Notes under the pieces: generated by a model
The model's database searches: none
What the model was told of the DNA's origin: nothing
Seen by the model: the letters and a program-made list of their open reading frames with translations, nothing else
Made by a program: the position numbers and the translations under genes
IMG/VR virus record: IMGVR_UViG_3300045988_017255
Strand: one strand, 5' to 3'
DNA: 42,384 bases
From: a virus
Shown here: positions 1,467-27,626 of the stretch, piece after piece
How positions within the stretch are numbered: the stretch's first letter is position 1
Layout of the letters: each line of letters starts with the position of its first letter

Positions 1467-1470
1467 TATT

Positions 1471-4825: not shown

Positions 4826-4831
4826 TGACTT

Positions 4832-4948
4832 GTCCGATGCAGGAGGCGCTTGCATCGGTGGGAAATTCGATCCTATTTCCCGTGGATTGAAATGCTAAAA
4901 ACAGTATGCTGGGGAAAAAGAGCGGAGTTCCCGCTCTTTTTTCTTTTT
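4832..4948 (+). ncRNA. Candidate ~115-nt small RNA, antisense to the late-operon leader
   Basis: Consensus-like promoter upstream. Two perfect hairpins (CCGATGCA...TGCATCGG at about 4843-4867; GGGAAAT...ATTTCCC at about 4860-4882). Ends at an intrinsic terminator with a T-run at 4938-4948. Confidence 0.4.
4915..4948. terminator. Bidirectional intrinsic terminator
   Basis: Stem AGAGCGG / CCGCTCT (4919-4925 / 4931-4937), extended by A/T pairs. T-run on the plus side and TTTTT on the minus side. Confidence 0.7.
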
Positions 4949-5222
4949 ATTGTGCGGCATATGTCCCCTCTGGGTCACATCGTTGAGAGGTGCGAGGGGT
5001 CCTGTTGGTGCCGTGTGGGAGGTGCGACCTCCCGCCCCAGATCGCGGGGTGCAACGAGCGCACGGCATATAACAACAGCCCATAGGTTTCCCTACAGGCT
5101 GTTTGTGCCGGTACGCCCGTTTCCGAGTCCGCTTGCGCGGTGCGCCCAATACCGGCGGCGCATAGAAGGGAGGAAAAGTGATGATTGGGAAAACACGTGG
5201 ATGCCACTGTCCTATCATCCAC
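4915..5222 (-). ncRNA. Structured leader RNA of the late operon (GNRA-capped helices, ends at the terminator)
   Basis: No credible ORF. Nested helices, with three GNRA tetraloops (GCAA, GAAA, GAAA) only when read on the minus strand. A possible -10 TACAAT lies at 5230-5235. See findings. Confidence 0.45.
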
Positions 5223-5243
5223 TGTACCTATTGTAGCACATCA

Positions 5244-5708
5244 TTAAGTGGAATTTGTGCCATCTTTTGTGTAAAGACCACTGTATTTTGCCACATCCAT
5301 CAAAAATTGCTCCTTCCTCCGACTGAATGTCCTCTCGCTGATCCCCGGGATCACGATCCGATTACGGGCATACTTGTGCTTGCCTTGGCAGTTGCGCATA
5401 ATGCCATATATTAGCTGCCGCCGGATTGTATCGCTGCCGATATCTCTGCCGCAGCGGTCTATAGCGTATTCCACCGCCAGCATCTTCTGCGTCTCCGGCC
5501 ATCGCTCTATGGCGGCCAGCTGCTCCGCCTTGCTCTCGGCGGGTCTGCCAGCACCCGGTCCAGTTGGCATGCCCTCTGTGGCACTATGCGTCCCGTCCAA
5601 GATCTCCGCCCGGGCCTCGCGATACGCCCGCACCCGGCGCGGATACCCACGCACATAAGCAATGCACTCCAACCGCACATCATAAGGCAGTGTCGCCTTT
5701 TTGCTCAT
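5244..5708 (-). CDS. Putative late-gene transcription regulator (sigma-70 region-4-like HTH; RinA/ArpU-type position)
   Basis: 154 aa. It is the last gene before the packaging module. The C-terminal GISERTFSRRKEQFLMDVAKYSG resembles a region-4 HTH. Confidence 0.45.
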   Translation of the reverse strand: MSKKATLPYDVRLECIAYVRGYPRRVRAYREARAEILDGTHSATEGMPTGPGAGRPAESKAEQLAAIERWPETQKMLAVEYAIDRCGRDIGSDTIRRQLIYGIMRNCQGKHKYARNRIVIPGISERTFSRRKEQFLMDVAKYSGLYTKDGTNST

Positions 5709-5718
5709 TTGCCCTCCT

Positions 5719-6012
5719 TTACTCCGCGCTGTTTACCATCTTATATTCGCCCCGCAGGGCCTTTTCGATGTCCGCCATCTTTACATAGCCGTTGTTTTTT
5801 GCCTCCACAAGCTCCACAAGGCATTGCTGGAGGTATTCCAGGCTGCGGGTGTCGTGCTCGTCTGCCGTCTCCTCCCGCACATGGAACCCGCACTTGTCCA
5901 GCAGTACGCAGGAAACATTGTCCATGCATTGTTTGGTGCCATCCAGGCGCCCCAGCTCGTATGCCTTGGCCGGATTATTTGGCACCGGCTTCCCATTAAC
6001 TCTCTTGAGCAT
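5719..6012 (-). CDS. Hypothetical protein
   Basis: ATG at 6012 (MLKRVNGKPVPNN...) with a GAGGTGA SD. Translationally coupled to its neighbours. Confidence 0.6.
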   Translation of the reverse strand: MLKRVNGKPVPNNPAKAYELGRLDGTKQCMDNVSCVLLDKCGFHVREETADEHDTRSLEYLQQCLVELVEAKNNGYVKMADIEKALRGEYKMVNSAE

Positions 6013-6139
6013 CGCAGTCACCTCTATTCTCGAACCGGCACACGCCGGGATAATTGGCCACCGGGCAATAGTCCGCGCACGCTGGGCAATCCGCATTGAC
6101 GCATATTTCGTCCTGCATCCATTTGCAGTCATCAAGCAT
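5996..6139 (-). CDS. Small Cys-rich protein (47 aa)
   Basis: MLDDCKWMQDEICVNADCPACADYCP... ATG at 6139 overlaps the upstream stop by 8 nt. GGTGA SD. Confidence 0.5.
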   Translation of the reverse strand: MLDDCKWMQDEICVNADCPACADYCPVANYPGVCRFENRGDCDAQES

Positions 6140-6407
6140 CGGTTTCACCGTCCTTCCGTTCGCCGTAGGAGCAGAAATCGTCCGGCTTTCGCTTCTGGAA
6201 CCCGCAAATAATGCAGCTCCCGCCAAACTCATGCTTGCAGTCCTTACACCGCACCACGGGGGCGGCGTCCACGGTGGGGAGCTGCTCTGCATACTCCAAC
6301 ACCGTTTCAATGCCGTTTATAAAATGCTTGTTGCCGTTCTTTCTGTCGTAATGATTGCGACGGATGGGAAATTGCATCAATGCGCCTCGCTCGATGTATT
6401 CAGCCAT
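6132..6407 (-). CDS. Hypothetical phage protein (MAEYIERGA... / C-terminal CxxC pairs)
   Basis: 91 aa. VVRCKDCKH...CIICG gives a zinc-ribbon-like C-terminus. Overlapping start/stop with neighbours. Confidence 0.65.
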   Translation of the reverse strand: MAEYIERGALMQFPIRRNHYDRKNGNKHFINGIETVLEYAEQLPTVDAAPVVRCKDCKHEFGGSCIICGFQKRKPDDFCSYGERKDGETDA

Positions 6408-6603
6408 TGTCGTCCTCCTCCTGTTTCAGCTCTCGCACAGTCTGATGGATACGATTAGCGCAGGCAGGGCATATTTCATCCACAGCCAATATGTTCGGGT
6501 CGCTTGCGTAGGGGATGCGTGCGTTGTTCTCCACGCTGACCCTATAAGTTTCCTGGAAATTGTGCATTTCTTTTCCACAAAGATCACAAAAATGCTTCGT
6601 CAT
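6400..6603 (-). CDS. Small zinc-ribbon protein
   Basis: 67 aa with CDLCG ... CPAC pairs. Coupled to its neighbours by 4-8 nt overlaps. Confidence 0.6.
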   Translation of the reverse strand: MTKHFCDLCGKEMHNFQETYRVSVENNARIPYASDPNILAVDEICPACANRIHQTVRELKQEEDDNG

Positions 6604-6803
6604 GTTCTTTCCTCCCTTCCGTAAAATGCCTCTAAGTCATCCTGTGCTTTTTTCACGAAATCAGGGCAAACTACGCACTCCGGCAACGGGTCATCCGTCA
6701 TCGGGTCAACCAGTCCGAGACAGTAGATGCGGTCTTTCTTGCCGTCGTTCCATTCGTGAGACGGGCGTCCTCGCTTGCCCAGCGCACACTTAACCGTTGC
6801 CAT
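6600..6803 (-). CDS. Hypothetical protein (67 aa)
   Basis: ORF in the co-oriented early array. ATGA-type overlap with the downstream gene. Confidence 0.55.
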   Translation of the reverse strand: MATVKCALGKRGRPSHEWNDGKKDRIYCLGLVDPMTDDPLPECVVCPDFVKKAQDDLEAFYGREERT

Positions 6804-6805
6804 TG

Positions 6806-7000
6806 TCAGCCCTCCTCACAGTAAAATCGGGAAATATCATCCATACGCCAGCGAACCGTGTCAGAAATCAAGGAGTATAGATACCCCCCTTCCATGTGTA
6901 CGGTCTTCACACCGTATATCTGCCGCGGATTCGTGAAATGCCCGAATTGCTTTTTCATGTGTTCCTCAATCTCTTCCTTGAAGATAATAGTCAGCTTCAT
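6806..7000 (-). CDS. Hypothetical protein (64 aa)
   Basis: ATG at 7000 (MKLTIIFKEE...) overlaps the stop of the ASCH gene (ATGA). Confidence 0.5.
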   Translation of the reverse strand: MKLTIIFKEEIEEHMKKQFGHFTNPRQIYGVKTVHMEGGYLYSLISDTVRWRMDDISRFYCEEG

Positions 7001-7584
7001 TCCAGCGCCTCCACATAGCACCAGCTTTGGGGCGGGCGCTCTAAAAAGCATCCTGAATTTTTGCAATCAGGGCAGTCTCTTTTTGCAAGCCCAAGATCAG
7101 CATAAAAACAGTCGCGGTTGTTTTTCTTGAACTCTCGTAACTCTCGCGGCTTATCGTAGATTTTAAGGTCGGAGATGTGCCAACCATAGAGAAACGGCGC
7201 TTTTGCCCCATAAGCGTTGAGTTTTTCTTTTGAAACACACGACGCAGATATGGCTTTGATTTCGGTTTCAATATCGTCATTACCCCATTCGTTGAGCGAG
7301 AGGTAACAATAATCGAAATTTTCAGGTATTCCACGCTTACCAATTTCGTAAATCCGGTCACAGGTAAACTCCCCAATTACCTTGCCTCCGCCATAAAACT
7401 GTGGCTTTGGATAATCCGTTGCAATAAAGTCCTCGTGCGGGTACTTCGGCAGTGTACAGTAGATGTACACCTTGAACGGCGTTTCCAGTTTCGGGCGCGT
7501 CTTGCGGACCTCAATAGTCTTTTCCCCGCTGCAAATTTTCTCGCACCACTTCGGGCGGATGCTCAGCATAACAGCCTTACTCAT
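6997..7584 (-). CDS. ASCH (PUA-like) domain protein
   Basis: MSKAVMLSIRPKWCEKICSGEKTIEVRK is the characteristic ASCH N-terminus. Start placed at 7584. Confidence 0.65.
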   Translation of the reverse strand: MSKAVMLSIRPKWCEKICSGEKTIEVRKTRPKLETPFKVYIYCTLPKYPHEDFIATDYPKPQFYGGGKVIGEFTCDRIYEIGKRGIPENFDYCYLSLNEWGNDDIETEIKAISASCVSKEKLNAYGAKAPFLYGWHISDLKIYDKPRELREFKKNNRDCFYADLGLAKRDCPDCKNSGCFLERPPQSWCYVEALE

Positions 7585-7700
7585 TTCTTCATCGCCTCCA
7601 ATGCTTTCTCCGCCTCCTCGTGGGTGAGGAATACGGTCCACACCTCACTCATGGTGCCGCACATTCTGTTCCGCTCCTCAATAAACTTCACAGCATCCAT
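7581..7700 (-). CDS. Small hypothetical protein (39 aa, below the ORF-track cutoff)
   Basis: MDAVKFIEERNRMCGTMSEVWTVFLTHEEAEKALEAMKK. GGAGGG SD 8 nt upstream. The stop overlaps the next start (ATGA). Confidence 0.45.
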   Translation of the reverse strand: MDAVKFIEERNRMCGTMSEVWTVFLTHEEAEKALEAMKK

Positions 7701-7713
7701 ATTGTCAGCCCTC

Positions 7714-7914
7714 CTATCTCATGTGTCGTTTCCCGGCCTTTGCAAACCTCGCGCTCTGCCGCACATAGCGCTCCCGGGCGACGGTATTGGCTTGATCCAC
7801 CCAGGGCTTTTCCTCCAGCCGCTTGGCCTCATACTCCCGGAACGCCTCGCAGCTCTTCCGGCAGGCCCCGCATGGGAGCCTGTCCGGGCAATCTTTTACG
7901 CAGGGGCTTTTCAT
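7714..7914 (-). CDS. Small Cys-rich protein (66 aa)
   Basis: MKSPCVKDCPDRLPCGACRKSC... ATG at 7914 overlaps the upstream stop (ATGA). Confidence 0.55.
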   Translation of the reverse strand: MKSPCVKDCPDRLPCGACRKSCEAFREYEAKRLEEKPWVDQANTVARERYVRQSARFAKAGKRHMR

Positions 7915-8360
7915 CCGGCCCACCTCACGATCTTTTCCCGCACGCCCCATTGGAGTGCATCCTCGTGGCTGTCAAAATACAGATCCAGCCGATTCCCGGC
8001 AATGGCTCCGCCGGTGTCCTGCACGGTGTATGTATGGCCGTCCAGTTCGATTTCCGTACCCATCGGCAGCACATCCGGGTCTGCGGCGATCGTCACGCCC
8101 TGGGTGGCCTTTTCGCCGGTGGCTGTGTAGCCATTTGCATACGCCCCACAGCATTTTTCACAGGGGCAGTACGCAGTGACGGTAAATACGCACGTCCGCG
8201 TCTCCTGGGGTCCCTGCGGCTCATCGCGGGGCAGAACCACCCTCGGCGGCACAACTACAGTCTCCGGCGTTTGTCCGCTGTACTCGGTGGCGGCCGCAAT
8301 GCCCAATGATCCCAAGGTTGCCGCAAGCAGCGCAGTGATTAATAGTGCCTTGCTTTTCAT
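7911..8360 (-). CDS. Secreted 3D-domain (MltA/RlpA-like double-psi beta-barrel) protein
   Basis: N-terminal signal peptide (MKSKALLITALLAATLGSLG). C-terminal TAYCPC..GYTATG..IAADP..LPMGT..YTVQDTGGAI..LDLYF matches the 3D-domain motif pattern. Confidence 0.7.
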   Translation of the reverse strand: MKSKALLITALLAATLGSLGIAAATEYSGQTPETVVVPPRVVLPRDEPQGPQETRTCVFTVTAYCPCEKCCGAYANGYTATGEKATQGVTIAADPDVLPMGTEIELDGHTYTVQDTGGAIAGNRLDLYFDSHEDALQWGVREKIVRWAG

Positions 8361-10667: not shown

Positions 10668-11744
10668 TCAATACCTCACTCCGATGTAGTCCAATACTCT
10701 GGCGTAGCCAAGCCCCTTTTCAGTTGGCTTCCACAGGCCGTCCACAGGGTCATACGCCCCACCGCCAATGCAAAATTCGTAGTGCTTCGGGTGCGTATGT
10801 TTCATCCTCTCAAAACGATTCTCGCCTTTTTCCAGGTGGGCTCCAAATGCGCAGAACATACAGCCCGATCGCTGACATCCCGTACAGTGCAGCGGGCATT
10901 CCGTCAGCGTCGCATCGTAGTCGTTCTCGCCATCGCTTGCTACGATTTCGCCGTACACGCTGGCATATGGGATTCGATTGCCCACAATATACCGCAGCAC
11001 ATCCTGCTCCGTCCAAAAGCTCATCGGCTTTCCCATCGGCCTCTTGCCCTCAAAGGCATTGCAGCCTGTGCGTTGCCATTTCAGCATGCGCAGCCGACTT
11101 TCTTCCGCCATCAACGCTGTCATGGGGTGGAGCCCTGTTTTGGCCTCGAACTTGTGCATGGGCCCCTTTTTCATCACCTTGCAGCATGAATCCGACACGA
11201 GAAACGGCGCATGAACTAAACCCCCCCACTTTTCGCAGTTGTACGGGGATTTTTCTCCATTTTTATCGAGGTATTCCCCGCGTAAACGCTGTGCCGATTT
11301 CCCATCTGGATTAATTCGAGCATTTCCTACATACGCGGCCACCTCTTTGCTCACGATGCTGTACCCGTACTTCGTCACCACCTGTCGAATGTTCATCTTT
11401 GGGCGCAGGCGGAAAAGGTTTACGTTCACGCGGTGGAACTCCCTCCGTAGCCAGTCAGCGCACTCATTGACGAACTTCTGTATCTCTGGATATTCCAGCC
11501 CCGTGTTCGCAAACGCCAAGTTCAGCTCCCACGGCGGTGTCCTGAAGCTCGACAGGTACAACGCCGCCAAATACGCCAGCACCGTGCTGTCCTTTCCACC
11601 GGAAAAACTGACGTAACACTGTCCGCCCCACGCGGTGTACCACTCATCCAGTTTCTCAACGCTGGTGATGACCTTGTCATCCAAATCAAGGGATAGCAAT
11701 TTCTTGGCAGCCTCGCTCGTCAACGGAGTGTTAAACCGTTCCAT
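10668..11744 (-). CDS. PAPS reductase / PP-loop ATP-pyrophosphatase family protein with C-terminal Cys cluster (IbrA/DndC-like)
   Basis: The SFSGGKDS PP-loop motif is present. The C-terminus has CTGCQRSGCMFCAF. ATG at 11744 has a GGAGGTGG SD. Confidence 0.75.
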   Translation of the reverse strand: MERFNTPLTSEAAKKLLSLDLDDKVITSVEKLDEWYTAWGGQCYVSFSGGKDSTVLAYLAALYLSSFRTPPWELNLAFANTGLEYPEIQKFVNECADWLRREFHRVNVNLFRLRPKMNIRQVVTKYGYSIVSKEVAAYVGNARINPDGKSAQRLRGEYLDKNGEKSPYNCEKWGGLVHAPFLVSDSCCKVMKKGPMHKFEAKTGLHPMTALMAEESRLRMLKWQRTGCNAFEGKRPMGKPMSFWTEQDVLRYIVGNRIPYASVYGEIVASDGENDYDATLTECPLHCTGCQRSGCMFCAFGAHLEKGENRFERMKHTHPKHYEFCIGGGAYDPVDGLWKPTEKGLGYARVLDYIGVRY

Positions 11745-19703: not shown

Positions 19704-20297
19704 ATGGAGAAATCGTTGCAGGACACTTGCCGGGACGCAAAACTGGAACAGCACATCACGGCGCAGGAGATAGCAGACCAATCCGGTGTGCCTTTGTCCA
19801 GCGTTAACAACTTTTTTGCATCCACATCTAAAGCACCGGGCGTGTATGCGGCTGGTCCCATATGCAGGGTGCTGGGGGTGTCTATGGACCGTTACTTTGG
19901 CATTGTAGAGGTTGTTTTGGCGCAAGACCAAATCAAGCAGCTCCAGCAAGTCCATGACGAGGATGTGCGCCTTGCACGGATAGAGGGCGCATACGATGAG
20001 CTGTCCAAATCAGCAGAGGAGCAGAAGAAAAAAGCAAGGCGGCAGCGCACGATGCTGTATATCACATCGCTGCTGTCCGCTATCCTGCTGGGTATAGTTA
20101 CATGGTATGTGGCGCTTGATTACCGTGTGCAGGACGAAGGCCTAATCCGATCCAGGACAGCCGGTACGATTGCATGGATTGTCATTGCGCTTTTGGCGGT
20201 GGGTATCGGCGTACTTACATCCGTGCTATTGTCCACTCTTACGGCGGGCAAAAAAACCACACAAGGCGAGGAAGCAGAAAATGAGCAACTGCATTAA
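19704..20297 (+). CDS. Membrane-anchored XRE-family HTH regulator
   Basis: N-terminal HTH (ITAQEIADQSGVPLSSVNNFF), a coiled-coil middle, and two C-terminal TM segments (LYITSLLSAILLGIVTWYV; IAWIVIALLAVGIGVLTSVLL). Confidence 0.65.
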   Translation: MEKSLQDTCRDAKLEQHITAQEIADQSGVPLSSVNNFFASTSKAPGVYAAGPICRVLGVSMDRYFGIVEVVLAQDQIKQLQQVHDEDVRLARIEGAYDELSKSAEEQKKKARRQRTMLYITSLLSAILLGIVTWYVALDYRVQDEGLIRSRTAGTIAWIVIALLAVGIGVLTSVLLSTLTAGKKTTQGEEAENEQLH

Positions 20298-21372
20298 ATG
20301 CGGAACAACTCTTGTCCCGGGCGCCGTATATTGCCATCTCTGTGGCAAAAAACAGGTAACAGAGCGGCGCAAGGCATTGAAGCGGGCCAACGGCACCGGA
20401 ACTGTATACAAACTGGCGGGGCGTAGAAAATCGCCTTGGGTGGCCGCAAAAAACAAAGTGATTATCGGGCATTATGAGCGCAAAACGGCCGCGCTGGACG
20501 CTTTGGAGCGATTGAACGGCAAGAGCTTAACGGAGCGGTATAATATGACCTTTGCAGAAGTGTTTGATGCGTGGAAAGCAGAGCATTACAAGGAGATTGG
20601 CAAGCAGGGGATAGAATCATATAACAATGCCTACCGCATATTTACGCCGCTCCACGGGAAAAAGTTTCGTGATCTCCGCACCGCAGACTTTCAGGCCGTA
20701 CTTGACCCACACATGACCAAGAGCCATTCCACCGTGAACAAGTATAAGCAGCTCATAACGCAGATGTCGAACTGGGCAATCCGGGAGGAAATCTGCACGA
20801 CAAATTTTGCAAAGTTTGTCCGGCTGCCAGAAAATGTAAAAAAAGAAAAGGACATCTTCACGGTGGAAGATATCCGTAAATTGGAATCCGACAACAGCGA
20901 TGCGGCGAAAATTGTCTTGATGCTGCTGGCAACGGGTATGCGTATCGGAGAACTGTTTGCCCTACCTCTGGCAGACTGTCACGGCGATTATGTGATCGGC
21001 GGCGAAAAAACCGAAGCCGGCAGAAACCGAATTATCCCCATCCGCCCGGAGGGGAAACAATACTTTGCCTATTTTGCGAAGCAAGCAACGGGGGAGCTGC
21101 TTTTATCCGGCTACGATGGGCAAAAAGTCCCGGCGAACTTCCGCAGGCGAGATTTTTACCCGCTCCTTGACAGGCTGGGAATAGAGCGCAAGACCCCGCA
21201 CGCAACACGCCACACATACGCATCCCGGGCGGTAAAAGAGGGATTGCCCCCGGAAATGCTGCAAAAAATACTCGGACACGCCGATTATTCCACCACCGCA
21301 AACATATATACGCACATCGACGCGCAGACACTTGTGGATGCTGTTACTAACACGTTACTAACAAATAAATAA
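20281..21372 (+). CDS. int: Tyrosine integrase with N-terminal zinc ribbon
   Basis: CIKCG...CHLCG ribbon at the N-terminus. Catalytic pattern ATGMRIGE (R), HATRHTYAS (HxxR), LGHADYSTTANIYTH (H...Y). Adjacent to attP. Confidence 0.9.
   Translation: MSNCIKCGTTLVPGAVYCHLCGKKQVTERRKALKRANGTGTVYKLAGRRKSPWVAAKNKVIIGHYERKTAALDALERLNGKSLTERYNMTFAEVFDAWKAEHYKEIGKQGIESYNNAYRIFTPLHGKKFRDLRTADFQAVLDPHMTKSHSTVNKYKQLITQMSNWAIREEICTTNFAKFVRLPENVKKEKDIFTVEDIRKLESDNSDAAKIVLMLLATGMRIGELFALPLADCHGDYVIGGEKTEAGRNRIIPIRPEGKQYFAYFAKQATGELLLSGYDGQKVPANFRRRDFYPLLDRLGIERKTPHATRHTYASRAVKEGLPPEMLQKILGHADYSTTANIYTHIDAQTLVDAVTNTLLTNK
21343..21363 (+). repeat. Arm-type integrase site candidates: GTTACTAACA x2, 11-nt phasing
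   Basis: Copies at 21343-21352 and 21354-21363, inside the 3' end of int. Confidence 0.5.
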
Positions 21373-21388: not shown

Positions 21389-21421
21389 AGCCTTGAAACC
21401 GTTGAGTTTCAAGGCTTTTTT
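21389..21421. terminator. Bidirectional intrinsic terminator after int, abutting the tRNA-like core
   Basis: 11-bp stem AGCCTTGAAAC / GTTTCAAGGCT, with T-runs on both strands. Confidence 0.8.
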
Positions 21422-21467
21422 GGTGCCCCGTCGGGGATTCGAACCCCGGACACCCTGCTTAAAAGGC
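21421..21467 (-). other. attP core: 3' part of a tRNA-Lys(UUU) gene (anticodon loop to CCA), not a complete tRNA
   Basis: The minus strand reads gcCTTTTAAgcagg-gtgtc-CGGGGTTCGAATCCCCG-acggggc-a-cca. That is an anticodon loop, variable loop, canonical T-arm, acceptor 3' strand and CCA. No matching 5' acceptor or D-arm lies upstream. Confidence 0.7.
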
Positions 21468-21599: not shown

Positions 21600-21732
21600 C
21601 TACAAGCTCGCCGGATCACAACAGATGCCTTGACGTGCATGGGGTTACAAGTTCAAGTTCTGTACCGCGCACCAAAAAAGTCCAGGAATCTCAATGGTTC
21701 CCGGACTTTTTTATTTTTGCCAAGATTAACTT

Positions 21733-21759: not shown

Positions 21760-22083
21760 TTAGGTTAGTTTTTTTAGGACGCTATTATAAGCTTTCTCAT
21801 TGACGATTTTAAGGGTGTCCATAAGCTCGTCCATGACTTCCCACGCCCTATCCTGCGCCACATTCCCGACCGCTTTCAAAAATTCACTGCCGGAGGGGTT
21901 TATTGTCTTGGCCGGCGCAGACTCTGCGGAATACAGCATTGGGGGAGCTTTCGCCTGCAGTTGCTCCCCGCCGTGCTCGTTACGGATAATGTAGAGAGCC
22001 GCCAGTTTCTCATAATTGGGCCAGCTTGATTCTTCTGTTTCCAGCCGTGCGATCCATAGTTTCAGCTCGGTTTCATCGATCAT
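21760..22083 (-). CDS. Hypothetical protein (107 aa)
   Basis: ATG at 22083 (MIDETELKLWIARLE...) with a GGGGG SD. Last gene before attP. Confidence 0.55.
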   Translation of the reverse strand: MIDETELKLWIARLETEESSWPNYEKLAALYIIRNEHGGEQLQAKAPPMLYSAESAPAKTINPSGSEFLKAVGNVAQDRAWEVMDELMDTLKIVNEKAYNSVLKKLT

Positions 22084-22096
22084 GGGGAATCCCCCT

Positions 22097-22474
22097 TTAA
22101 TTCTCCATAAGGCTGACAGCGCGGCGCAGGGCCTCCCTGACGCGCTCGTCATCCGTTTCCCGCATCATGTCGTTTAGCTGGGTGCGCAGATGCTCCGCGC
22201 CATCCGCGCGGCTGTAATGTCCGCGCACATAGTGCGATCCGCGCCGCGCGTAGGAGCTGCCCCGGCCATAGGCGCCGCGCATATCCGCTTCCCAATCACC
22301 GCCGCCAGAATAGCCTTCTGATTCCATCATGTCAATTTTATCTATGTTCTTGATGGTTGCTGTCAGTTTGTGGGCAATTTCCAGGTCACCCGCACCCAAT
22401 TCGCCTTTTCGGGCCAGTTCGTCCAGCTCCTTGCAGAGCATATCCCGCAGTTCATACATAGATTTCATACCCAT
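22097..22474 (-). CDS. Hypothetical protein (125 aa; helical ends, Gly/Arg/Tyr-rich centre)
   Basis: MGMKSMYELRDMLCKELDELARKGEL... AAGGAG SD. Confidence 0.6.
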   Translation of the reverse strand: MGMKSMYELRDMLCKELDELARKGELGAGDLEIAHKLTATIKNIDKIDMMESEGYSGGGDWEADMRGAYGRGSSYARRGSHYVRGHYSRADGAEHLRTQLNDMMRETDDERVREALRRAVSLMEN

Positions 22475-22488
22475 TGTGTTCTCCTTTC

Positions 22489-22911
22489 TCAGCTCACACG
22501 GTCGATGGTCAGGTTGCTATTGGCAAAGCTGACCGCCTCCGCGCTGGTGTTCTTCGCTGCCACAGTCACGCAGCAGCCGCGCGGCACTTCCACGATGGCG
22601 CTGACGTAGATGTTAAAATAGTTTTCCACCGCAGCCGGGGTGACGGTCGCCGTTGCTCCGTTGAGTGCTTCGCCGTTGACGGCAAGCGCCGTGGTGATCG
22701 CGCCTACCGTTCCACCCGTGGGGACAGCGATGTTTGCGCCAAAGCTCACCTTAAAACGCGCCTTACACTGCTGCGTCAGCCCACGCAGGGTAACAAGGCC
22801 GCTGCCCTCACGGTGGACGATGCAGGGCTTGCCGCAAGCCGCCGTTGCAATCAGCGGTACATTCTGCCCAGCGGGGACGGTCGCGATTCCGGGATTCACA
22901 TATTCAGCCAT
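22489..22911 (-). CDS. BclA C-terminal-domain-like (C1q/TNF jelly-roll-like) protein
   Basis: 140 aa, with the beta-rich pattern ...ALAVNGEALNGATATV...NSNLTIDRVS. This resembles BclA/BxpB-type exosporium domains. The call is by eye only. Confidence 0.35.
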   Translation of the reverse strand: MAEYVNPGIATVPAGQNVPLIATAACGKPCIVHREGSGLVTLRGLTQQCKARFKVSFGANIAVPTGGTVGAITTALAVNGEALNGATATVTPAAVENYFNIYVSAIVEVPRGCCVTVAAKNTSAEAVSFANSNLTIDRVS

Positions 22912-22927
22912 ATATTTCAGTCCTTTC

Positions 22928-22961
22928 TAAAAATACAGCGGCGAGGCAATAGCCCCGCCGC
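22928..22961 (-). terminator. Intrinsic terminator
   Basis: On the minus strand: a 10-bp stem GCGGCGGGGC / GCCTCGCCGC (one G-U pair), loop TATT, then TGTATTTTT. Confidence 0.65.
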
Positions 22962-23041
22962 GTTGTCGTAGTATCGGCACGGGGCCGACCATCTCGGTAA
23001 CGTCACCGATATGGTGACCGAGAAGCTATGCTATGCAGTTG

Positions 23042-23776
23042 TCAGCAGCCGCAGCCCTGATTGCAGCCGCAGCCGCCGTAACCGCTGCCCGCCCACGGGT
23101 TACAAGTAATGTAGGCAGGCGAAGGGCACGGACGCAGCTGCGAGATCAGATAGTTGTTCTGCGCGGCCTGAGATGCCGCCAGTTTCAGATTCTGATTCTC
23201 GGTCTGGAGGTCGGACAGCTTGCTCTGCGTCAGGAAGTCGAGGATGGCGCGGCTGTTCTGGTTGTTCGCGTCAATGATGTCGCGTGTGGCGTTCTGCACG
23301 GTGTTGCGCGTGTCGCACGCCTGCGTCGCCATGTCGTAGCGCACCTGCGCGATAGCTGCACGGTTTTCGCAGCAACAATTAGCGGCCTGCATCTGCATGG
23401 CGTTGAGCTGCTGCATGAGCGCCGCCTGCTGGTTGCTGCGGGAAAGCTCGGCCTGTGCAAAGCCGTTTGCCATCGCCATGTTAGTGCCGTTGACAAGCTG
23501 CGCCTGCTGGTAAAAACCGTCGCAAAGGCCCTGATTTACACTGTCGATCTTGCGCTCGACATTGGCAAAATCAGAGGTCAGCACGTAGCCGTCGACCACG
23601 CCGCTGGAATTGCCAGCGTTGTTGCCCCAGCCGTTGCCGCCCCAGCCCATTAGCACGATAAAAAACAGGATGATCCACCAGCCATTACCGCCGCCGAAAC
23701 CATCATAGCCGCCGCCCATCATGCCGGTAGGCGCAACGGGCATAATAGTGGAGGTACCACCATCAGAGAGAGCCAT
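23042..23776 (-). CDS. Membrane-anchored Gly-rich / Gln-Asn-rich protein with CCC motif and Cys-Gly C-terminus, unknown
   Basis: Contains GGGYDGFGGGNGWWIILFFIVLMGWGGNGWG (TM segment). A long Q/N-rich helical region follows, with ANCCCENR, and the protein ends GYGGCGCNQGCGC. AAGGAG SD. Confidence 0.7.
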   Translation of the reverse strand: MALSDGGTSTIMPVAPTGMMGGGYDGFGGGNGWWIILFFIVLMGWGGNGWGNNAGNSSGVVDGYVLTSDFANVERKIDSVNQGLCDGFYQQAQLVNGTNMAMANGFAQAELSRSNQQAALMQQLNAMQMQAANCCCENRAAIAQVRYDMATQACDTRNTVQNATRDIIDANNQNSRAILDFLTQSKLSDLQTENQNLKLAASQAAQNNYLISQLRPCPSPAYITCNPWAGSGYGGCGCNQGCGC

Positions 23777-23829
23777 AAAATCACTCCTTTGTTTTAAAAA
23801 ATTTTATCTAATTCGTGGCCACGAAAAGA

Positions 23830-24051
23830 TTACCGGAACAAATTCCCAAATTGGGCCGCCATGCCCTGGAGTTGGTTTAACTGATCCTGCGAGATTTGAC
23901 CGCTTTGCACAAGCCGCTCAATCTCCGCCTTGGGATCGCCTTTAAATGTCGATTTAAACTGATTAAACTGCTGTATCATCTGCGCAAAGCCGCCCATCGG
24001 GCCGGACATCCGCCCGCCGCCCAGCGCACCATAAAACGGATTACCCATCAT
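23830..24051 (-). CDS. Small Gly/Gln-rich protein (73 aa)
   Basis: MMGNPFYGALGGGRMSGPMGGFAQMIQQFNQFKSTFKGDP... Overlaps the upstream stop. Confidence 0.55.
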   Translation of the reverse strand: MMGNPFYGALGGGRMSGPMGGFAQMIQQFNQFKSTFKGDPKAEIERLVQSGQISQDQLNQLQGMAAQFGNLFR

Positions 24052-24478
24052 TATCGGTCTCCTTTACTTTTTTCGGATTTTCTGCGCCTTTTATCTCCTC
24101 CACGATTGCCGTCAGGCGGTCAAACTCTTCTCGCGTGACAAATTCAGCGCCCGGCTTTTTAGGTGTTACAGGCCCTATTTCTGCCCGCTCCTTGAGATCG
24201 TAAATCTTAAGAGATGGTTTTCCGCTGGCATCTGCCTGCTTGAGATAGACGGTAGGTGCGGTACTATCCCATAACGCAACCGCCGCGTTAGGTGCTATTA
24301 TCCAATTCCAAGCCTCCTGCTCGCCGCTTACCCATTGCACCCCGCCCTGTGCGATTGGATTTTGCGGGGCCTGTGGCGTCTGCATCATAGGCATCTGCTG
24401 CTGCCGCATCTGCATGAGTGTGTCCGGCATAGGCTGCGGGTAATAAGGGTTTTGGTAGCCGTAAGGTGTAAAAGCCAT
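24041..24478 (-). CDS. Pro/Gln-rich N-terminus protein (145 aa), unknown
   Basis: MAFTPYGYQNPYYPQPMPDTLMQMRQQQMPMMQ... then a globular part ...VYLKQADASGKPSLKIYDLKER. Confidence 0.6.
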   Translation of the reverse strand: MAFTPYGYQNPYYPQPMPDTLMQMRQQQMPMMQTPQAPQNPIAQGGVQWVSGEQEAWNWIIAPNAAVALWDSTAPTVYLKQADASGKPSLKIYDLKERAEIGPVTPKKPGAEFVTREEFDRLTAIVEEIKGAENPKKVKETDNDG

Positions 24479-24480
24479 AA

Positions 24481-24864
24481 TTATTCCATCCTTTCCGTTG
24501 TCCAGTAATATAAGGGCACTTCGCCGCCCGAATCCCAGGAATCAAAAATTACGCCATCCTGTACGCAGACCACATGCCCGGATAAAGCAAGGATATAAGT
24601 CCCTTTTGGGTGCTCCTCCGCAAACCGCGCCACCGTGTAGCAATCGGGGCATGTGTCCGGGATAATATGCCGCCGGTATCCGATACTGCGCAAGTAGGCC
24701 CCCCAACAGGCGTTAGCGTTTGGCAAATCTCCGTCCAAGTAGCCTTGCATGCACAGCCGGAGGTAAACCTCGCCCCAATCCTTTCCCGTGGCCTTACAGA
24801 TCGCACGGACAGTGCAATCTGACACGTTTTTCCCGCAGGGATTTGGATTAAAATATTTATACAT
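24481..24864 (-). CDS. Papain-like cysteine peptidase-fold protein (putative)
   Basis: MYKYFNPNPCGKNVSDCTVRAICKA (candidate Cys nucleophile) ... LSGHVVCVQDG (candidate His) ... DSWDSG. The pattern recurs in gut Firmicute phages, from memory. Confidence 0.5.
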   Translation of the reverse strand: MYKYFNPNPCGKNVSDCTVRAICKATGKDWGEVYLRLCMQGYLDGDLPNANACWGAYLRSIGYRRHIIPDTCPDCYTVARFAEEHPKGTYILALSGHVVCVQDGVIFDSWDSGGEVPLYYWTTERME

Positions 24865-24997
24865 GATCGCAATCCCTATATAGGCTTTCAGCGATTTCCA
24901 CATACGCTAAAAGCCCCCGGGGATCGTCTGCGTACAGAATGCAAATATCCTGCGCCATTTGCGCGGTAAACCCGCATTTGATTAATCGCTCGTACAT
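24857..24997 (-). CDS. Small hypothetical protein (46 aa, below the ORF-track cutoff)
   Basis: MYERLIKCGFTAQMAQDICILYADDPRGLLAYVEIAESLYRDCDHV. AAGGAGG SD. The stop overlaps the next start by 8 nt. Confidence 0.45.
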   Translation of the reverse strand: MYERLIKCGFTAQMAQDICILYADDPRGLLAYVEIAESLYRDCDHV

Positions 24998-25022
24998 ATT
25001 CCAGCCTCCTTGCCTCTATAAT

Positions 25023-25054
25023 AAAAAAAATCCGGGCAGATAAACTGCCCGGAT
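25023..25054 (-). terminator. Strong intrinsic terminator
   Basis: On the minus strand: a 10-bp stem ATCCGGGCAG / CTGCCCGGAT, loop TTTAT, then TTTTTTTT. Confidence 0.85.
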
Positions 25055-25075
25055 TCTGCCTGGATTCTGCAATGA

Positions 25076-25216
25076 TTAATTTTCTGTTTTTATTGCCTCT
25101 TTAATTAGTTTCTCGATGTAGTTCGAGACGCTGCGCCCATCCGCTTCGGCGGCGGCCTGCAGTTGGGATTTAAGCTCCGGCGTGATCCGGATTACGAGAC
25201 GGTCTGTTTTTGCCAC
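25076..25216 (-). CDS. Ribbon-helix-helix (CopG/Arc/ParD-like) DNA-binding protein, 46 aa
   Basis: GTG start at 25216 with a GGAGGT SD. (M)AKTDRLVIRITPELKSQLQAAAEADGRSVSNYIEKLIKEAIKTEN shows the beta-strand plus two-helix RHH pattern. Not in the ORF track. Confidence 0.6.
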   Translation of the reverse strand: MAKTDRLVIRITPELKSQLQAAAEADGRSVSNYIEKLIKEAIKTEN

Positions 25217-25232
25217 TTGCTACCTCCAAAAT

Positions 25233-25637
25233 TTAATCCCACATATGCGCTACGCAATATGCGCTCCATTTTTCCTCCATCTCGGATATGGCTACGTTAT
25301 AATCCTCACCCGCCAAAATTTTATGCGCAGCGGATTGACCGGCTGTGCGTTTGGCGTAATTTTCGGCCTTGCTCCACTCATCCGCCTTGAGATATGCAAC
25401 AGCTTTTGGATATTGCTTGCGCAGCGCATCAAGATCGTGAGTCGGCTTAGGGCGGACACCCATACCGCCACACGCTGCATCACCATCAAAGGACGCATTT
25501 AGTTCCCGATGCCACGCGCGTAAATCGGCCTGCGCGTTTCTGATTTCCAATAGCCCCGGAATGGCGTTTATCTTGGCCGCCAAGTCCTGCGCCTCTTGTT
25601 TTTCGGATCGCTCTTTTTCCAGTAAGTAATCCATCAT
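25233..25637 (-). CDS. Unknown 134-aa protein
   Basis: ATG at 25637 (MMDYLLEKERSEKQ...) with a GGAGGTGA SD 8 nt upstream. It starts 1 nt after the upstream stop. Confidence 0.6.
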   Translation of the reverse strand: MMDYLLEKERSEKQEAQDLAAKINAIPGLLEIRNAQADLRAWHRELNASFDGDAACGGMGVRPKPTHDLDALRKQYPKAVAYLKADEWSKAENYAKRTAGQSAAHKILAGEDYNVAISEMEEKWSAYCVAHMWD

Positions 25638-25638
25638 T

Positions 25639-25986
25639 TTAGTGCTCACCTCCATACTCTCCTGTGACATCCTCAACGTCAAAATTCCAGGAGTCCCCAT
25701 TATTAATCTCGTCCTCGGTAAGCCCCTGCAATCCATCACCGTCTTCGCCCCTGTTAGCGTTTTCGCACTCGTGCTCCCACCAAGAGATCAGTTCATCGGC
25801 ATCCTTATCTGTATAGGTATAGGCTTTGTCGCAACCACAATCGTCAAGATCAATGACATCATGGCCATCGCGCGCATCGTAACCGCCTATATCGTCAAAG
25901 CAATCGGGTTCATACCCGGCATTCCATCCGCCGCGCCAAAGGCGGAGGGTAATCTCCAGCAATCGAGTTTCGGTTTTGATAAACAT
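25639..25986 (-). CDS. Highly acidic 115-aa protein, unknown
   Basis: ATG at 25986 with an AAGGAG SD. By hand count it has about 32 Asp/Glu versus 8 Lys/Arg. Confidence 0.6.
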   Translation of the reverse strand: MFIKTETRLLEITLRLWRGGWNAGYEPDCFDDIGGYDARDGHDVIDLDDCGCDKAYTYTDKDADELISWWEHECENANRGEDGDGLQGLTEDEINNGDSWNFDVEDVTGEYGGEH

Positions 25987-26037
25987 TTGATTTGCTCCTT
26001 TCTGAATTGGCCTGTCCGTTATCTTTACTGCGGTTAC

Positions 26038-26066
26038 AATGTACGCCATTTGTACGCACAATACAA
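26038..26066 (-). promoter_or_regulatory. Candidate promoter (TTGTAT-N17-TACATT) with TGTACGC direct repeats in the spacer/-10
   Basis: On the minus strand, -35 is at 26061-26066 and -10 at 26038-26043. The plus-strand repeats TGTACGC lie at 26040-26046 and 26051-26057, 11 nt apart. Confidence 0.45.
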
Positions 26067-26075
26067 GGGGGAAAG

Positions 26076-26104
26076 TGCACAAATTTTTATTATTTTTTTG
26101 TGCA
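26076..26104. promoter_or_regulatory. Inverted repeat TGCACAAA-N13-TTTGTGCA in an AT-rich tract
   Basis: Arms at 26076-26083 and 26097-26104, upstream of the cassette promoter. Confidence 0.45.
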
Positions 26105-26142
26105 AAAACGAAAAATAGCCGCGCCCAAAAAGGGCACGGCTA
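26103..26142 (-). terminator. Strong intrinsic terminator
   Basis: On the minus strand: an 11-bp stem TAGCCGTGCCC / GGGCGCGGCTA (one G-U pair), loop TTTTT, then TTTTTCGTTTTT. Confidence 0.85.
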
Positions 26143-26145
26143 CTT

Positions 26146-26421
26146 TTAGGAATTGAATGCATCCGCCAGTTTTTGGTATGCTCGGCGGCGCAATTTGTAA
26201 AATCCATCTACGCTGATATGCAGTTTTGCCGCCGTCTGTACGCAGGTGCGGCCAAAAACGTCCACGTCAATTACACAGGTTTCCTCGTCTTCCGGTAGCC
26301 CTACCGCGCGGATCGTTTCTTTGGCGCGGCATGGCGCCATAGTGGATAGTTTTTTGCGGATCCTTTTGTGCTGATCTATCATTTCCCACGGTGTGCCGTG
26401 GAGGTGCGGATGCTTATGCAC
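26146..26421 (-). CDS. Sigma-70 region-4-like HTH protein
   Basis: The C-terminal AAKLHISVDGFYKLRRRAYQKLADAF resembles a region-4 HTH. The start is uncertain (GTG at 26421 or ATG at 26382). Confidence 0.5.
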   Translation of the reverse strand: MHKHPHLHGTPWEMIDQHKRIRKKLSTMAPCRAKETIRAVGLPEDEETCVIDVDVFGRTCVQTAAKLHISVDGFYKLRRRAYQKLADAFNS

Positions 26422-26472: not shown

Positions 26473-27126
26473 TTACCGGATATACCCCTCAAAGCCGGCT
26501 GCCTTGAGCTTGGCCAGCATCCTCTCCGCGTTGGCGCGGACGGCAAATGCACCCACCTGCACCCGGTAGAGTTTGTCGGTGGCGGCGGGCTTAGGCTGCT
26601 CCTTCTCCTTATAGGTCACGCCGAAGTAGTCGCAGATACCCCGGGCAATGGCCTCTCCGATGTCAACCGTATGCTCCACGATCCACTTGGCGGTGGTGGC
26701 GTTGTCGTGGAACTCGCACTCGATATAGGTCGTAGGGGCGCTGGGCACCCGCACCTCGTACAGGGAGGCATCCACCCGGATATTCTCGCTGGTGCCGGGG
26801 GTCACCGGGGCCAGCCGGGAAAAGATAGCCTTGCAGGCCTTCATGCCCTCGCCGCTGCTGTTAAAGCAGAACATGCGAGTACCGCTGACCTTGCCGTTAA
26901 AGGCGTTGGTGTGGATGGGCACATGGAGATCCGCGCCGAAGGCGTTGGATTCCTTGCACTTATCCTGCATGGAGGGCATATGCCCTACCTTCACGGTCAC
27001 GCCGCTGCGCTCCAGGGCGGCGCGGCAGGCATCGGCAATTTTACCGCACTGGACGGCCTCGGTGGTGTTGCCGTAGGCATAGCGGTTGTCGGTCTGATTG
27101 CTGGGAGACAGATATACTTTAGCCAT
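26473..27126 (-). CDS. Endolysin: N-acetylmuramoyl-L-alanine amidase (Amidase_3-like) with C-terminal SPOR-like domain
   Basis: MAKVYLSPSNQ...HVPIHTNA...ECEFHDN carries amidase motifs. The C-terminal YRVQVGAFAVRANAERMLAKLKAAGFEGYI is SPOR-like. Follows the holin. Confidence 0.85.
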   Translation of the reverse strand: MAKVYLSPSNQTDNRYAYGNTTEAVQCGKIADACRAALERSGVTVKVGHMPSMQDKCKESNAFGADLHVPIHTNAFNGKVSGTRMFCFNSSGEGMKACKAIFSRLAPVTPGTSENIRVDASLYEVRVPSAPTTYIECEFHDNATTAKWIVEHTVDIGEAIARGICDYFGVTYKEKEQPKPAATDKLYRVQVGAFAVRANAERMLAKLKAAGFEGYIR

Positions 27127-27334
27127 TTTCATTTTCCTCCTTGTTATAGGTGGCGGTGGAGATGCACAGCACCGCGCCGAAAAAGGTGTCCACGGCGGTG
27201 ATGGTGGTGACGATCTCCTCCGAGTAGGGCCAGGCCCACACGGCGGACAGGGCCGCGTACAACGTGGCGATGGCCGGCAGGACGATGATGACCACCCACT
27301 TGAGAATGTCATACAGCTTGTCAGGGATTTTCAT
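27119..27334 (-). CDS. Holin (Dp-1-type)
   Basis: MKIPDKLYDILKWVVIIVLPAIATLYAALSAVWAWPY...TFFGAVLCIS. It has two TM segments and lies directly upstream of the amidase. Confidence 0.75.
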   Translation of the reverse strand: MKIPDKLYDILKWVVIIVLPAIATLYAALSAVWAWPYSEEIVTTITAVDTFFGAVLCISTATYNKEENENG

Positions 27335-27374
27335 GGTTTGCTCCTTTCTGTGCCCGATTCGGGCACCACAAAAA

Positions 27375-27626
27375 TTAATTCTTGTTTTCCAAGTCCGCGA
27401 TGCGGTGGTTGGCAACCTTGATCTGCTCCTCCAGCACCGGGACGCGCCGCGCGAAATTGTTGTGCTCCCGGACTTCGCGGGTCAGCTCCTCCAGCTTGGT
27501 ATCGGTGACGGCCTGCTGCTTGTCCAGCTTGGCTGCCACGTCTCGAGCGGTTTTGCTGCTGGTGATAAGTACCCCCAACAGCGACAGGCCGCCGGTAATC
27601 AGAGCCACGATGATTGCTTCTGTCAT
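27375..27626 (-). CDS. Membrane-anchored coiled-coil protein (XhlA-like lysis accessory?)
   Basis: N-terminal TM segment (AIIVALITGGLSLLGVLI), then a coiled coil. Confidence 0.55.
   Translation of the reverse strand: MTEAIIVALITGGLSLLGVLITSSKTARDVAAKLDKQQAVTDTKLEELTREVREHNNFARRVPVLEEQIKVANHRIADLENKN

Follow-up and report, generated by a model that had tools for sequence, protein, structure and literature searches.

The viral record IMGVR_UViG_3300045988_017255 of IMG/VR (42,384 nt; this entire stretch of DNA is called the window below) is the circularly permuted genome of a temperate siphophage. Its structural genes occupy the minus strand from about 42 kb down to 27.7 kb and are followed by an XhlA-like gene, a holin, and an endolysin. 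The present work concerns eight open reading frames (ORFs), g1 to g8, all placed on the minus strand between these lysis genes and the integrase, which a first-pass annotation made from the sequence alone had described as an accessory cluster reminiscent of spore-surface building blocks. The best explanation for our findings is that g1 to g8, together with an upstream regulator gene (g0) and a three-hairpin RNA, constitute a single accessory operon that moves horizontally and that, in many siphophage-like genomes from Clostridia of the gut and rumen, occupies the distal end of the late/lysis region. The features of the locus are collected in Table 1.

Table 1. The accessory cassette of the window and the features that surround it, listed in the direction of transcription of the cassette
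Feature	Position	Strand	Description
Dp-1-type holin	27119-27415	-	Downstream of the XhlA-like gene; confirmed as part of the lysis cassette
Amidase_3+SPOR endolysin	26473-27312	-	Confirmed as part of the lysis cassette
g0	26146-26421	-	Small sigma-70-region-4/GerE-type helix-turn-helix (HTH) protein, 91 aa; conserved upstream partner, directly after the amidase
Terminator-like hairpin after g0	26111-26147	-	From hairpin scan and sequence
Insertion between g0 and g1	25076-26082	-	Specific to this phage; two ORFs with no assigned function and an RHH protein; outside the conserved cassette
RHH/Arc-like protein	25076-25216	-	46 aa; RHH_5, E 8.8e-08
Two 14-nt direct repeats CAGAATCCrGGCAG	25045-25069	-	Period 11; overlap the 5' arm of the terminator; 0 of 200 shuffles as good
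Intrinsic-terminator-like hairpin and T tract	25027-25057	-	13 pairs; before g1
-10-like hexamer TATTAT	25018-25023	-	Directly after the T tract; read from the sequence, consensus-level
Shine-Dalgarno sequence AAGGAGG	25005-25011	-	Before g1
g1	24857-24997	-	46-aa helical peptide, translationally coupled to g2
g2	24481-24864 (ORF 24481-24903)	-	127-aa predicted papain-like Cys-His-Asp enzyme; phrog_3754, E 1.7e-34
g3	24041-24478	-	Y/P/Q-rich N-terminus, beta domain of ~55 aa, C-terminal helix; phrog_21718, E 2.3e-30
g4	23830-24051	-	73-aa Gly/Gln-rich protein; phrog_22984, E 9.7e-23
g5	23042-23776	-	Single hydrophobic anchor, CCC, CxC-rich tail; phrog_16490, E 7.2e-38
Conserved three-hairpin RNA	22909-23029	-	~120 nt, at the g5|g6 junction
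RNA hairpin H1	~22992-23023	-	Stem kept while its sequence varies
RNA hairpin H2	22974-22988	-	GC/AU/CG swaps
RNA hairpin H3	22938-22961	-	GC-rich terminator, then a U tract
g6 ribosome-binding site	22921-22927	-	After the U tract of H3
g6	22489-22911	-	Stand-alone 140-aa protein with predicted TNF/C1q fold of BclA-CTD (C-terminal domain)/BxpB/ExsF type; phrog_20016, E 4.5e-57
g7	22097-22474	-	Acidic helical ends, R/G/Y/S-rich centre; phrog_28802, E 1.6e-11
g8	21760-22083 (ORF 21760-22152)	-	107-aa acidic protein, probably helical
Bidirectional terminator hairpin A6-GTCCAGGAA...TTCCCGGAC-T6	21674-21712	both	Closes the cassette; same hairpin between g8 and tRNA-Val in the integrated relative
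attP core, 3' half of tRNA-Val(GAC)	~21627-21674	+	From comparison with the integrated Vescimonas fastidiosa prophage
Tyrosine integrase	20170-21372		Opposite orientation to the structural and cassette genes

All eight ORFs proposed by the first-pass annotation are present, and the lysis cassette that it placed next to them was likewise recovered. Comparison of their sequences indicates that they are real genes rather than chance ORFs: six of the eight proteins match PHROG families (E 1.6e-11 to 4.5e-57), every one of which is labelled as having unknown function, and tblastn revealed homologues of the cassette genes in dozens of loci. Two starts were corrected. For g2, the true start is most likely M14 of the ORF, where the ATG at 24864 overlaps the g1 stop codon as ATGTATAA and where the PHROG and homologue alignments also begin, and g8 most likely starts at 22083 (MIDETELK). 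The tight coupling claimed for the whole set holds for g1 to g4, with an 8-nt overlap between g1 and g2, a 2-nt gap between g2 and g3, and an 11-nt overlap between g3 and g4, but not for the remaining junctions, which are separated by 53 nt (g4/g5), 130 nt (g5/g6), 14 nt (g6/g7), and 13 nt (g7/g8). The inventory of genes between the lysis cassette and attP was also incomplete, since four further genes lie between the lysis genes and g1, one of which, g0, belongs to the conserved unit.

The absence of a standard phage role was borne out in Pfam, PHROGs, NCBIfam, and PADLOC. Scans of the eight proteins against Pfam, NCBIfam, and PADLOC returned no meaningful match, and no PDB sequence match named any of them. 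Membership in virion structural families (head, tail, or connector) was not detected, either among the PHROGs or as a Pfam structural domain. PADLOC yielded no defence-system component, only one spurious match (E 0.041). The cassette products carry no hallmark of virion, lysis, replication, or defence functions. A defence system was rejected as a candidate, with neither a PADLOC match nor a nuclease or ATPase, and R-body, gas-vesicle, or Ena (DUF3992) subunits were set aside for want of a Pfam match. Nothing relevant emerged from literature searches for a published description of the cassette, nor from searches on YopQ/8BRF or on the virion proteomes of Oscillospiraceae phages.

To examine the distribution of the cassette, the window genes were compared by tblastn with 55 loci, comprising 54 genome loci found through g6 plus Dulem virus 33. 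The genes g2-g3-g4-g5-g6-g7(-g8) occur in the same order in about 30 of the 55 loci, and the g5-g6 pair in 49. Homologues of g7 are colinear in 32 loci, whereas those of g8 occur in 17 loci and additionally in Butyrivibrio phage Ceridwen and the V. fastidiosa prophage; g1 has tblastn homologues in L006, L009, L011, L014, and L066, and similar small ORFs are visible upstream of g2 in L008, L017, L023, L026, L028, and L060. At 90% identity, g5 forms more than 7,900 protein clusters and g6 at least ~8,000, mostly on contigs of 40-45 kb. By contrast, the tail genes of the window, its RHH gene, and the adjoining genes with no assigned function are shared with none of the 55 loci, and its holin, amidase, and XhlA-like gene are found in few of them. 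These comparisons suggest that the cassette is shared by thousands of otherwise unrelated gut and rumen phages.

The same picture emerges from whole-genome comparisons with Dulem virus 33 and Ceridwen, in which only TerL (49% and 23% identity, respectively), the capsid region, the integrase, and the cassette (31-58%) match. The cultured phage Ceridwen (L060) carries g2 to g8 after its endolysin and has no integrase (PMC7372960); it has been seen only in lytic growth (PMC7372960). In a group of low-GC phages, the arrangement g3'-g4'-g5-g6-g7' stands at the end of the late operon, facing RuvC/dUTPase genes and with no integrase nearby, and distant versions of the cassette occur on contigs binned to Selenomonadaceae. 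The cassette is thus not bound to attP or to lysogeny. The set had been taken for a functional unit on the strength of its gene spacing, and its co-conservation in related genomes, colinear across very different phage backbones, now gives that view a firmer footing as a functional or evolutionary unit.

Several loci depart from the common arrangement. On 43-kb contigs (L057-L059, positions 1-8104) the cassette directly follows a protein of ~3,760 aa with LPD23/LPD3 “polyvalent protein” domains, with no lysis genes between them. In Dulem virus 33 (L001/L063, 20861-21412 of the record) an oppositely oriented endonuclease gene, which looks like an insertion of the homing-endonuclease type, separates g4 from g5. 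An extra ORF of ~70 aa lies between the RNA element and g6 in five loci (L005, L013, L015, L020, and L025), and Ceridwen carries an additional 264-aa gene with a weak HTH_17 match between g6 and g7 (L060, 9518-10312); from these two cases, the cassette appears to tolerate insertions at fixed points. An Oscillospiraceae metagenome-assembled genome (L056, 8933-10818) holds a chromosomal remnant of the cassette among ordinary metabolic genes, in which a fragment of an ISL3 transposase and a truncated g5 are accompanied by the leader RNA, g6, and g7; its g6 protein is identical to that of circulating phages.

Among the individual proteins, g6 bears most directly on the resemblance to BclA/BxpB C-terminal domains that had been proposed for it. 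The likeness stands at the level of the fold and fails at the level of the sequence family. An AlphaFold model of g6 is all-beta, with low confidence (pLDDT 60.6, pTM 0.52), and its top Foldseek matches are the BclA C-terminal domain (3tyj, 2r6q, 1wck), BxpB (8d02), and ExsF (9h3d, 7r5i), with E ~3e-4, TM ~0.53, and probability 1.0. Other matches include 4-1BBL, C1q, the central spike knob of phi812, the fibre domain of A-1(L), and the BC2L-C lectin. In Pfam, g6 has no match at E<=1 and hence lies below the curated cut-off of BclA_C (PF18573); one of 31 relatives gives BclA_C, weakly (E 0.0024). Neither a profile search nor a single-sequence search of PDB sequences with g6 found anything. The cassette proteins show no exosporium leader (TIGR03720) or any other NCBIfam match, and collagen-like GXY repeats are absent from g3 to g8.

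An exhaustive profile search with g6 retrieved 650 representative clusters (50% identity), of which the best 150 are all short stand-alone proteins; among these 150, g6 is never the tip of a long fibre. Judged by its sequences, the family is highly conserved, unlike receptor-binding proteins. As a separate observation, in-frame stops occur inside the otherwise well-conserved g6 of low-GC phages (L031, L039, L041, and L045), where nearby ORFs are fragmented, which suggests stop-codon reassignment in these phages.

The papain-like cysteine-peptidase fold proposed for g2 was supported by a confident AlphaFold2 model (pLDDT 92.4) in which C17 starts the helix 17-26, H97 stands just before the strand 98-102, and D108 ends the strand 105-108. 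These three residues are invariant in 18 diverse members, including proteins of Bacillus (Tsamsa-like) phages, Geobacillus GBK2, and Butyrivibrio phage Ceridwen. Foldseek matches are weak: Josephin-2 (E 0.11, probability 0.66), Tae4 (E 0.76), TssM (E 0.92), a viral Josephin (E 0.05), and an AvrRpt2-like protein (E 0.14). Single-sequence and profile searches of PDB sequences gave nothing useful, and Pfam gave no match, even in a scan of every member of the g2 alignment. On the model, peptidase, deconjugase, amidase, and transglutaminase are all candidate activities. The relatives of g2 represent a large family of small phage papain-like proteins with an invariant predicted catalytic triad.

Two specific roles for g2 were considered and rejected. 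In the first, the cassette would be a bacteriocin operon in which g5 has a double-glycine-like leader and g2 is the C39 peptidase that processes it; loci lacking g2 nevertheless keep the leader-like motif (LSDIAAxTG), so g2 is not required for it. The second, in which a UBA-like g1 and a Josephin-like g2 would act as a deconjugase against ubiquitin-like defence, was likewise set aside, as the UBA-like motif of g1 is putative. Low-GC variants (L034, L037, L039, and L044, ~11000-11390) are devoid of g2 and encode a small HExxH protein directly after g7', with sub-threshold matches to DUF6782, SprT-like, and M78 families; it may be a non-orthologous protease replacement for g2.

The sequence features listed by the first-pass annotation for g3, g4, and g5 are all present. 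The g5 protein has one hydrophobic segment (residues 33-47) flanked by Gly/Trp-rich stretches; apart from it, no hydrophobic segment or signal-peptide-like N-terminus was found in the cassette proteins. It contains 30 Gly and 47 Gln+Asn, a CCC motif, and a CGCNQGCGC tail. C134-C136 of the CCC motif are invariant in the alignment and sit in a Q/N-rich, probably helical region, and a PxPxP(A/S)(Y/F) motif (PxPxPAY) is conserved together with the CxC-rich end. A single-sequence PDB search with g5 and a Pfam scan of every member of its alignment found nothing useful. In the g3 alignment, a Pro/Gln-rich N-terminus (YQNPYYPQP) precedes a conserved beta domain of ~55 aa, with a helix at the C-terminus, and a profile search of PDB sequences with g3 was equally unproductive. 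The small g4 protein contains 12 Gly and 11 Gln in 73 aa. In general, g3, g4, and g7 each join short conserved domains to low-complexity segments, which consist of Y/P/Q in g3, G/Q in g4, and R/G/Y/S in g7.

Between g5 and g6, the internal terminator noted earlier is present, but it does not stand alone: it is the third hairpin of a larger conserved RNA that had been missed. An AUG(U/G)UC linker joins H1 and H2. Across 24 sequences, 82.8% of cells are paired, compared with 44-61% in slid controls, and 17 of the 22 pairs change on both sides, a level reached by 0 of 500 shuffles. A covariance model found exactly one strong copy per locus in ~40 loci, always at the g5|g6 junction, including many loci outside the training set. 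The window copy scores 105.9 bits and folds with a minimum free energy of -53.1 kcal/mol (z -3.9). No Rfam family corresponds to the RNA or to the terminators, the best overlap being the rpsL_pseudo leader (16 bits versus a gathering threshold of 70, E 9.8). Its loops do not seem to fit the ANTAR or the boxB pattern. The element thus adds a new covarying motif to the cis-regulatory RNAs, and its probable role is to control g6 to g8 as an attenuator or leader.

Upstream of the eight genes, g0 was overlooked by the first-pass annotation and, from its recurrence in the same position, appears to belong to the conserved unit. Most loci have a single-HTH protein of 73-91 aa directly upstream of g1/g2. 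The window copy matches Pfam Sigma70_r4_2 below the curated cut-off (E 0.013, 15.5 bits versus 25.7), and positional orthologues exceed it (36.9 bits in L006, 29.2 bits in L051, and GerE at 26.5 bits in L020); identity is 47-49% to the copies of L006, L011, and L014 and 36% to that of V. fastidiosa. No terminator lies between the endolysin and g0, and for this reason late lytic expression is at least as likely as prophage expression.

The interval between g0 and the cassette contains, in many loci, a hairpin with a T tract followed by an extended -10-like element, often preceded by tandem repeats of 10-11 nt. In the window, the terminator that had been reported upstream of g1 was confirmed as a terminator-like hairpin at 25027-25057, and at the place of its TATTAT hexamer other loci have TGCGAAAAT, TGCTTATAT, or TATAAT. 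Consensus-level evidence from these sequences thus points to a dedicated insulated promoter before g1. No sporulation-type (sigma-E/sigma-K) promoter was seen by eye upstream of g1 or g6; the conserved element is an extended -10 of the housekeeping type. The two 14-nt repeats of the window are possibly a binding site for a regulator. Tandem repeats of 10-11 nt with differing sequences occur in several other loci; as a general operator they were discarded, being significant in the window and a few loci only.

The window also has an insertion of its own in this interval, at 25076-26082, which neither the V. fastidiosa prophage nor any other locus compared possesses and which may be a recently acquired moron or toxin-antitoxin-like unit. 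Downstream of the g0 terminator (25990-26110, minus strand), an inverted repeat TTGCACAAA...TTTGTGCA accompanies the tandem GCGTACAAATG/GCGTACATTGT. These repeats resemble the CACATAA-type repeats upstream of the cassette in other loci and may represent the original target of g0.

At the other end of the cassette, the position of attP was settled by an integrated relative. A search of plasmid and secondary-replicon records identified a prophage of V. fastidiosa MM35 (NZ_AP023416.1) with 86% DNA identity to the window across the entire cassette. This strain (locus L066) is a cultured human gut isolate, and the prophage lies at tRNA-Val, at ~244-255 kb of an 861-kb secondary replicon. Homology stops at ~21629, adjoining tRNA-Val(GAC), and in L066 g8 is followed by the same bidirectional hairpin, the tRNA-Val(GAC) recognised by ARAGORN, and the host genes ldh, miaB, mutL, and mutS. 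ARAGORN found no complete tRNA in the window, and the tRNA half in attP was recognised only through this junction. The hairpin, the tRNA, and the end of homology together show that attP had been placed correctly beside the cassette, with its tRNA-Val half matching the integration junction, and that the cassette is the last item before attR in the lysogen. Between the tRNA-Val core and the terminator of the integrase gene there is a second tRNA-like 3' fragment (T arm and acceptor-CCA; 21420-21467, minus strand), to which the ends of other phage contigs from faeces (MT836296 and MT839728) show 96-100% identity; it may be a relic or an alternative attachment core.

How these components work together is a matter for interpretation. 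We tentatively favour a separately regulated, membrane-associated protein assembly in the phage-carrying cell. In this model, g5 would be held in the cytoplasmic membrane by its single N-terminal hydrophobic helix; because no positive charges flank the helix, its short Gly-rich N-terminal tail is probably outside and the remainder inside. From the anchor would extend a Q/N-rich helical stalk ending in the PxPxPAY motif and the CxC-rich tail, and a stand-alone g6 trimer of the TNF/C1q fold would cap or bundle the g5 tails, as ExsF clamps the proline-rich leader of BclA. The structural precedent is the ExsF-BclA/F-Anchor complex, in which the leader is bound at the clefts of the ExsF trimer and BclA undergoes proteolytic trimming (PMC12357932). 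The low-complexity proteins g3, g4, g7, and g8 could serve as adaptors or chaperones, and g2, with g1, might trim or cross-link a component of the assembly. Regarding control, g0 would be co-transcribed with the lysis genes, the terminator would shield the cassette from late read-through, transcription would restart at the extended -10 promoter, probably under g0, and the leader RNA would meter transcription into g6 to g8. Such an assembly would act at the level of the envelope of infected or lysogenic cells, for example in release or exclusion, and would not serve to build spores.

Several points weigh against this assembly model. The g6 model is of low confidence, and profile searches do not reach the BclA, BxpB, and ExsF of the PDB. 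In structure, g2 matches known peptidases only weakly (E 0.09-0.11), and the promoter and operator elements are consensus-level only. That g6 is highly conserved and that signal peptides are lacking would be just as expected of a virion protein. Also, Bacillus, Geobacillus, and Lak phages carry g2 by itself in early or accessory regions, so its action may be independent of the remaining cassette. Finally, the protein contacts, topology, and timing are ones that we infer, and the envelope-level purpose is a guess.

Two alternatives are serious rivals, although we consider both unlikely. The better placed of them is that the cassette is not one machine, but a syntenic string of independent accessory genes exchanged together, for instance with g1-g2 as a cysteine peptidase or deconjugase directed at the host or its defences, g5-g6(-g7) as a separate pair, and the rest as fillers. 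The solitary copies of g2 in Tsamsa-like Bacillus phages (where it lies beside an Ocr-like gene), Geobacillus GBK2, and Lak megaphages agree with this, as do the spread of the g2 fold in unrelated phages, the loci that hold only g5-g6 or g5-g6-g7, the insertions tolerated inside the cassette (the Dulem virus 33 endonuclease, the ORFs before g6, and the extra gene of Ceridwen), and the internal terminator, which divides the cassette into two units. However, g2 to g8 have the same order and content in Oscillospiraceae phages as in a Butyrivibrio phage with a terminase of only 23% identity, g1 to g4 are translationally coupled, and a single regulator gene and a single leader RNA serve the set.

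The other rival, to which we assign a rather low probability, is an accessory structure of the virion, made late, in which g6 would form a trimeric knob or decoration, and g5 either a coiled-coil fibre or a protein that is ejected and inserts into the membrane. Assembly would be aided by g7 and g8 as chaperones, and g2 would be the protease of maturation. The cassette has the same orientation as the structural and lysis genes and stands at their end, it is kept in a phage seen only in lytic growth, none of its proteins has a signal peptide, and in L036 it sits between fibre-like genes, for which a PHROG scan of the neighbours for tail-fibre context was uninformative. TNF-like knobs are, moreover, common as fibre tips, and two such phage domains (of phi812 and A-1(L)) are among the g6 matches. 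These points are countered by the movement of the cassette among phages with unrelated tail genes, because of which its docking partner in the virion would need to be universal. Placement after the lysis genes and behind a terminator, with a regulator and an attenuator-like RNA of its own, is unusual for structural genes, all the PHROG families of the cassette carry the label “unknown function,” g6 is more conserved than receptor-binding proteins are, and no fibre fusion was seen in its relatives among the best 150 of 650 clusters.

A more radical idea, which we regard as improbable, is that the cassette is a portable kit with which the infected or lysogenic cell, or the released particles, would build an exosporium-like structure outside sporulation from a Cys-rich membrane stalk, a BxpB/ExsF-like trimer, a low-complexity matrix, and a cysteine enzyme, under a GerE-like regulator and an attenuator RNA. 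If true, it would represent a new class of phage-directed surface or envelope architecture and suggest a phage origin or reservoir for exosporium-type building blocks.

Least probable, and very doubtful in our view, is the original reading of a prophage-expressed lysogenic-conversion cassette that would supply spore-coat, exosporium, or appendage-like building blocks to the spore or cell surface of the host, in the form of BxpB-like, Cys-rich, and Gly/Gln/Tyr-rich proteins together with an enzyme for their processing. It draws on the terminator-insulated, moron-like position beside attP, the BclA/BxpB/ExsF fold of g6, a coherent series of coat-component analogies (a GerE-like regulator, one protein rich in Cys and another rich in Q, and a cysteine enzyme), and the absence of signal peptides, which fits assembly in the mother cell. 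It is weakened by the cultured hosts and by the presence of the cassette in Ceridwen, a phage with no integrase. Butyrivibrio fibrisolvens, on which Ceridwen grows, is not known to form spores. The type strain of Vescimonas, the cultured host genus that comes closest, is described as non-spore-forming (PMC11334427). Distant copies in Selenomonadaceae bins, the lack of a visible promoter of the sigma-E/sigma-K type, and the lack of an exosporium leader, collagen-like repeats, and Pfam or NCBIfam membership also argue against it. With respect to lysogenic conversion, the position beside attP holds for the temperate members, but the full cassette is also carried by Ceridwen and the integrase-free low-GC phages.

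Whichever reading is correct, few uncharacterised gene sets in phages of gut Firmicutes are as widespread as this cassette, and none of its families has been named. Between distant carriers (Dulem virus 33 and Ceridwen) its conservation exceeds that of the terminase or capsid genes, which argues for a strongly selected function in the phage-host biology of the human gut and rumen. Two cultured systems carry it, namely V. fastidiosa MM35, with the 86%-identical prophage, and Ceridwen on B. fibrisolvens DSM 3071. Overall, we regard it as an accessory or moron-like operon, with a minority chance of something categorically new.

Phage morons and lysogenic-conversion cassettes between lysis genes and attP, such as the lambda b region, the immune-evasion cluster of S. 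aureus phages, and the sublancin operon of SPbeta, provide the closest comparison in genome position. The cassette resembles them in its place at the prophage end by attR, between late/lysis genes and attP, in the clear terminators on both sides, in its apparent own promoter and regulator, and in having no recognisable core-cycle role; as to the promoter, only the conserved extended -10-like element was observed. It differs from them in its distribution, which is not sporadic or confined to temperate phages: seven to nine genes are kept en bloc across unrelated backbones, including integrase-free ones. It is also far more conserved than typical morons, and its domains include no known factor of fitness or virulence.

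Comparisons can also be drawn for the individual components. With papain-like (clan CA-type) cysteine peptidases such as Josephin, C39-type leader peptidases, and AvrRpt2, g2 shares a Cys that begins a helix and, after it, a His and an Asp on successive strands, but it has no membership in their sequence families, and structural E-values are only 0.05-0.8. The g0 protein is essentially one HTH of the kind found in single-domain sigma-70 region 4 and GerE-LuxR regulators and in small phage late-gene activators, immediately upstream of its presumed targets; in contrast to them, the window copy is below the Pfam cut-off, and it may act as either an activator or a repressor at a putative target site. 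The g5|g6 RNA resembles terminator/antiterminator leader RNAs and phage nut/put sites in its two small conserved hairpins and in the GC-rich terminator that comes next, immediately ahead of the g6 ribosome-binding site, with covariation; it differs from known attenuators in matching no Rfam family, and an alternative pairing is hypothetical.

Finally, the exosporium proteins of the B. cereus group, the BclA C-terminal domain, BxpB (ExsFA), and ExsF (PDB 1WCK, 8D02, 7R5I, and 9H3D), share with g6 a size of ~140 aa and the predicted TNF/C1q jelly-roll. Like BxpB and ExsF, g6 is a stand-alone protein devoid of a signal peptide and encoded beside a Cys-rich protein with a proline-rich motif. It differs from these proteins in its ~15% identity to them and in being encoded by phages whose cultured hosts are not known to sporulate. 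The relatives of g6 may represent a TNF/C1q-fold family that is exosporium-like in shape and used outside sporulation.

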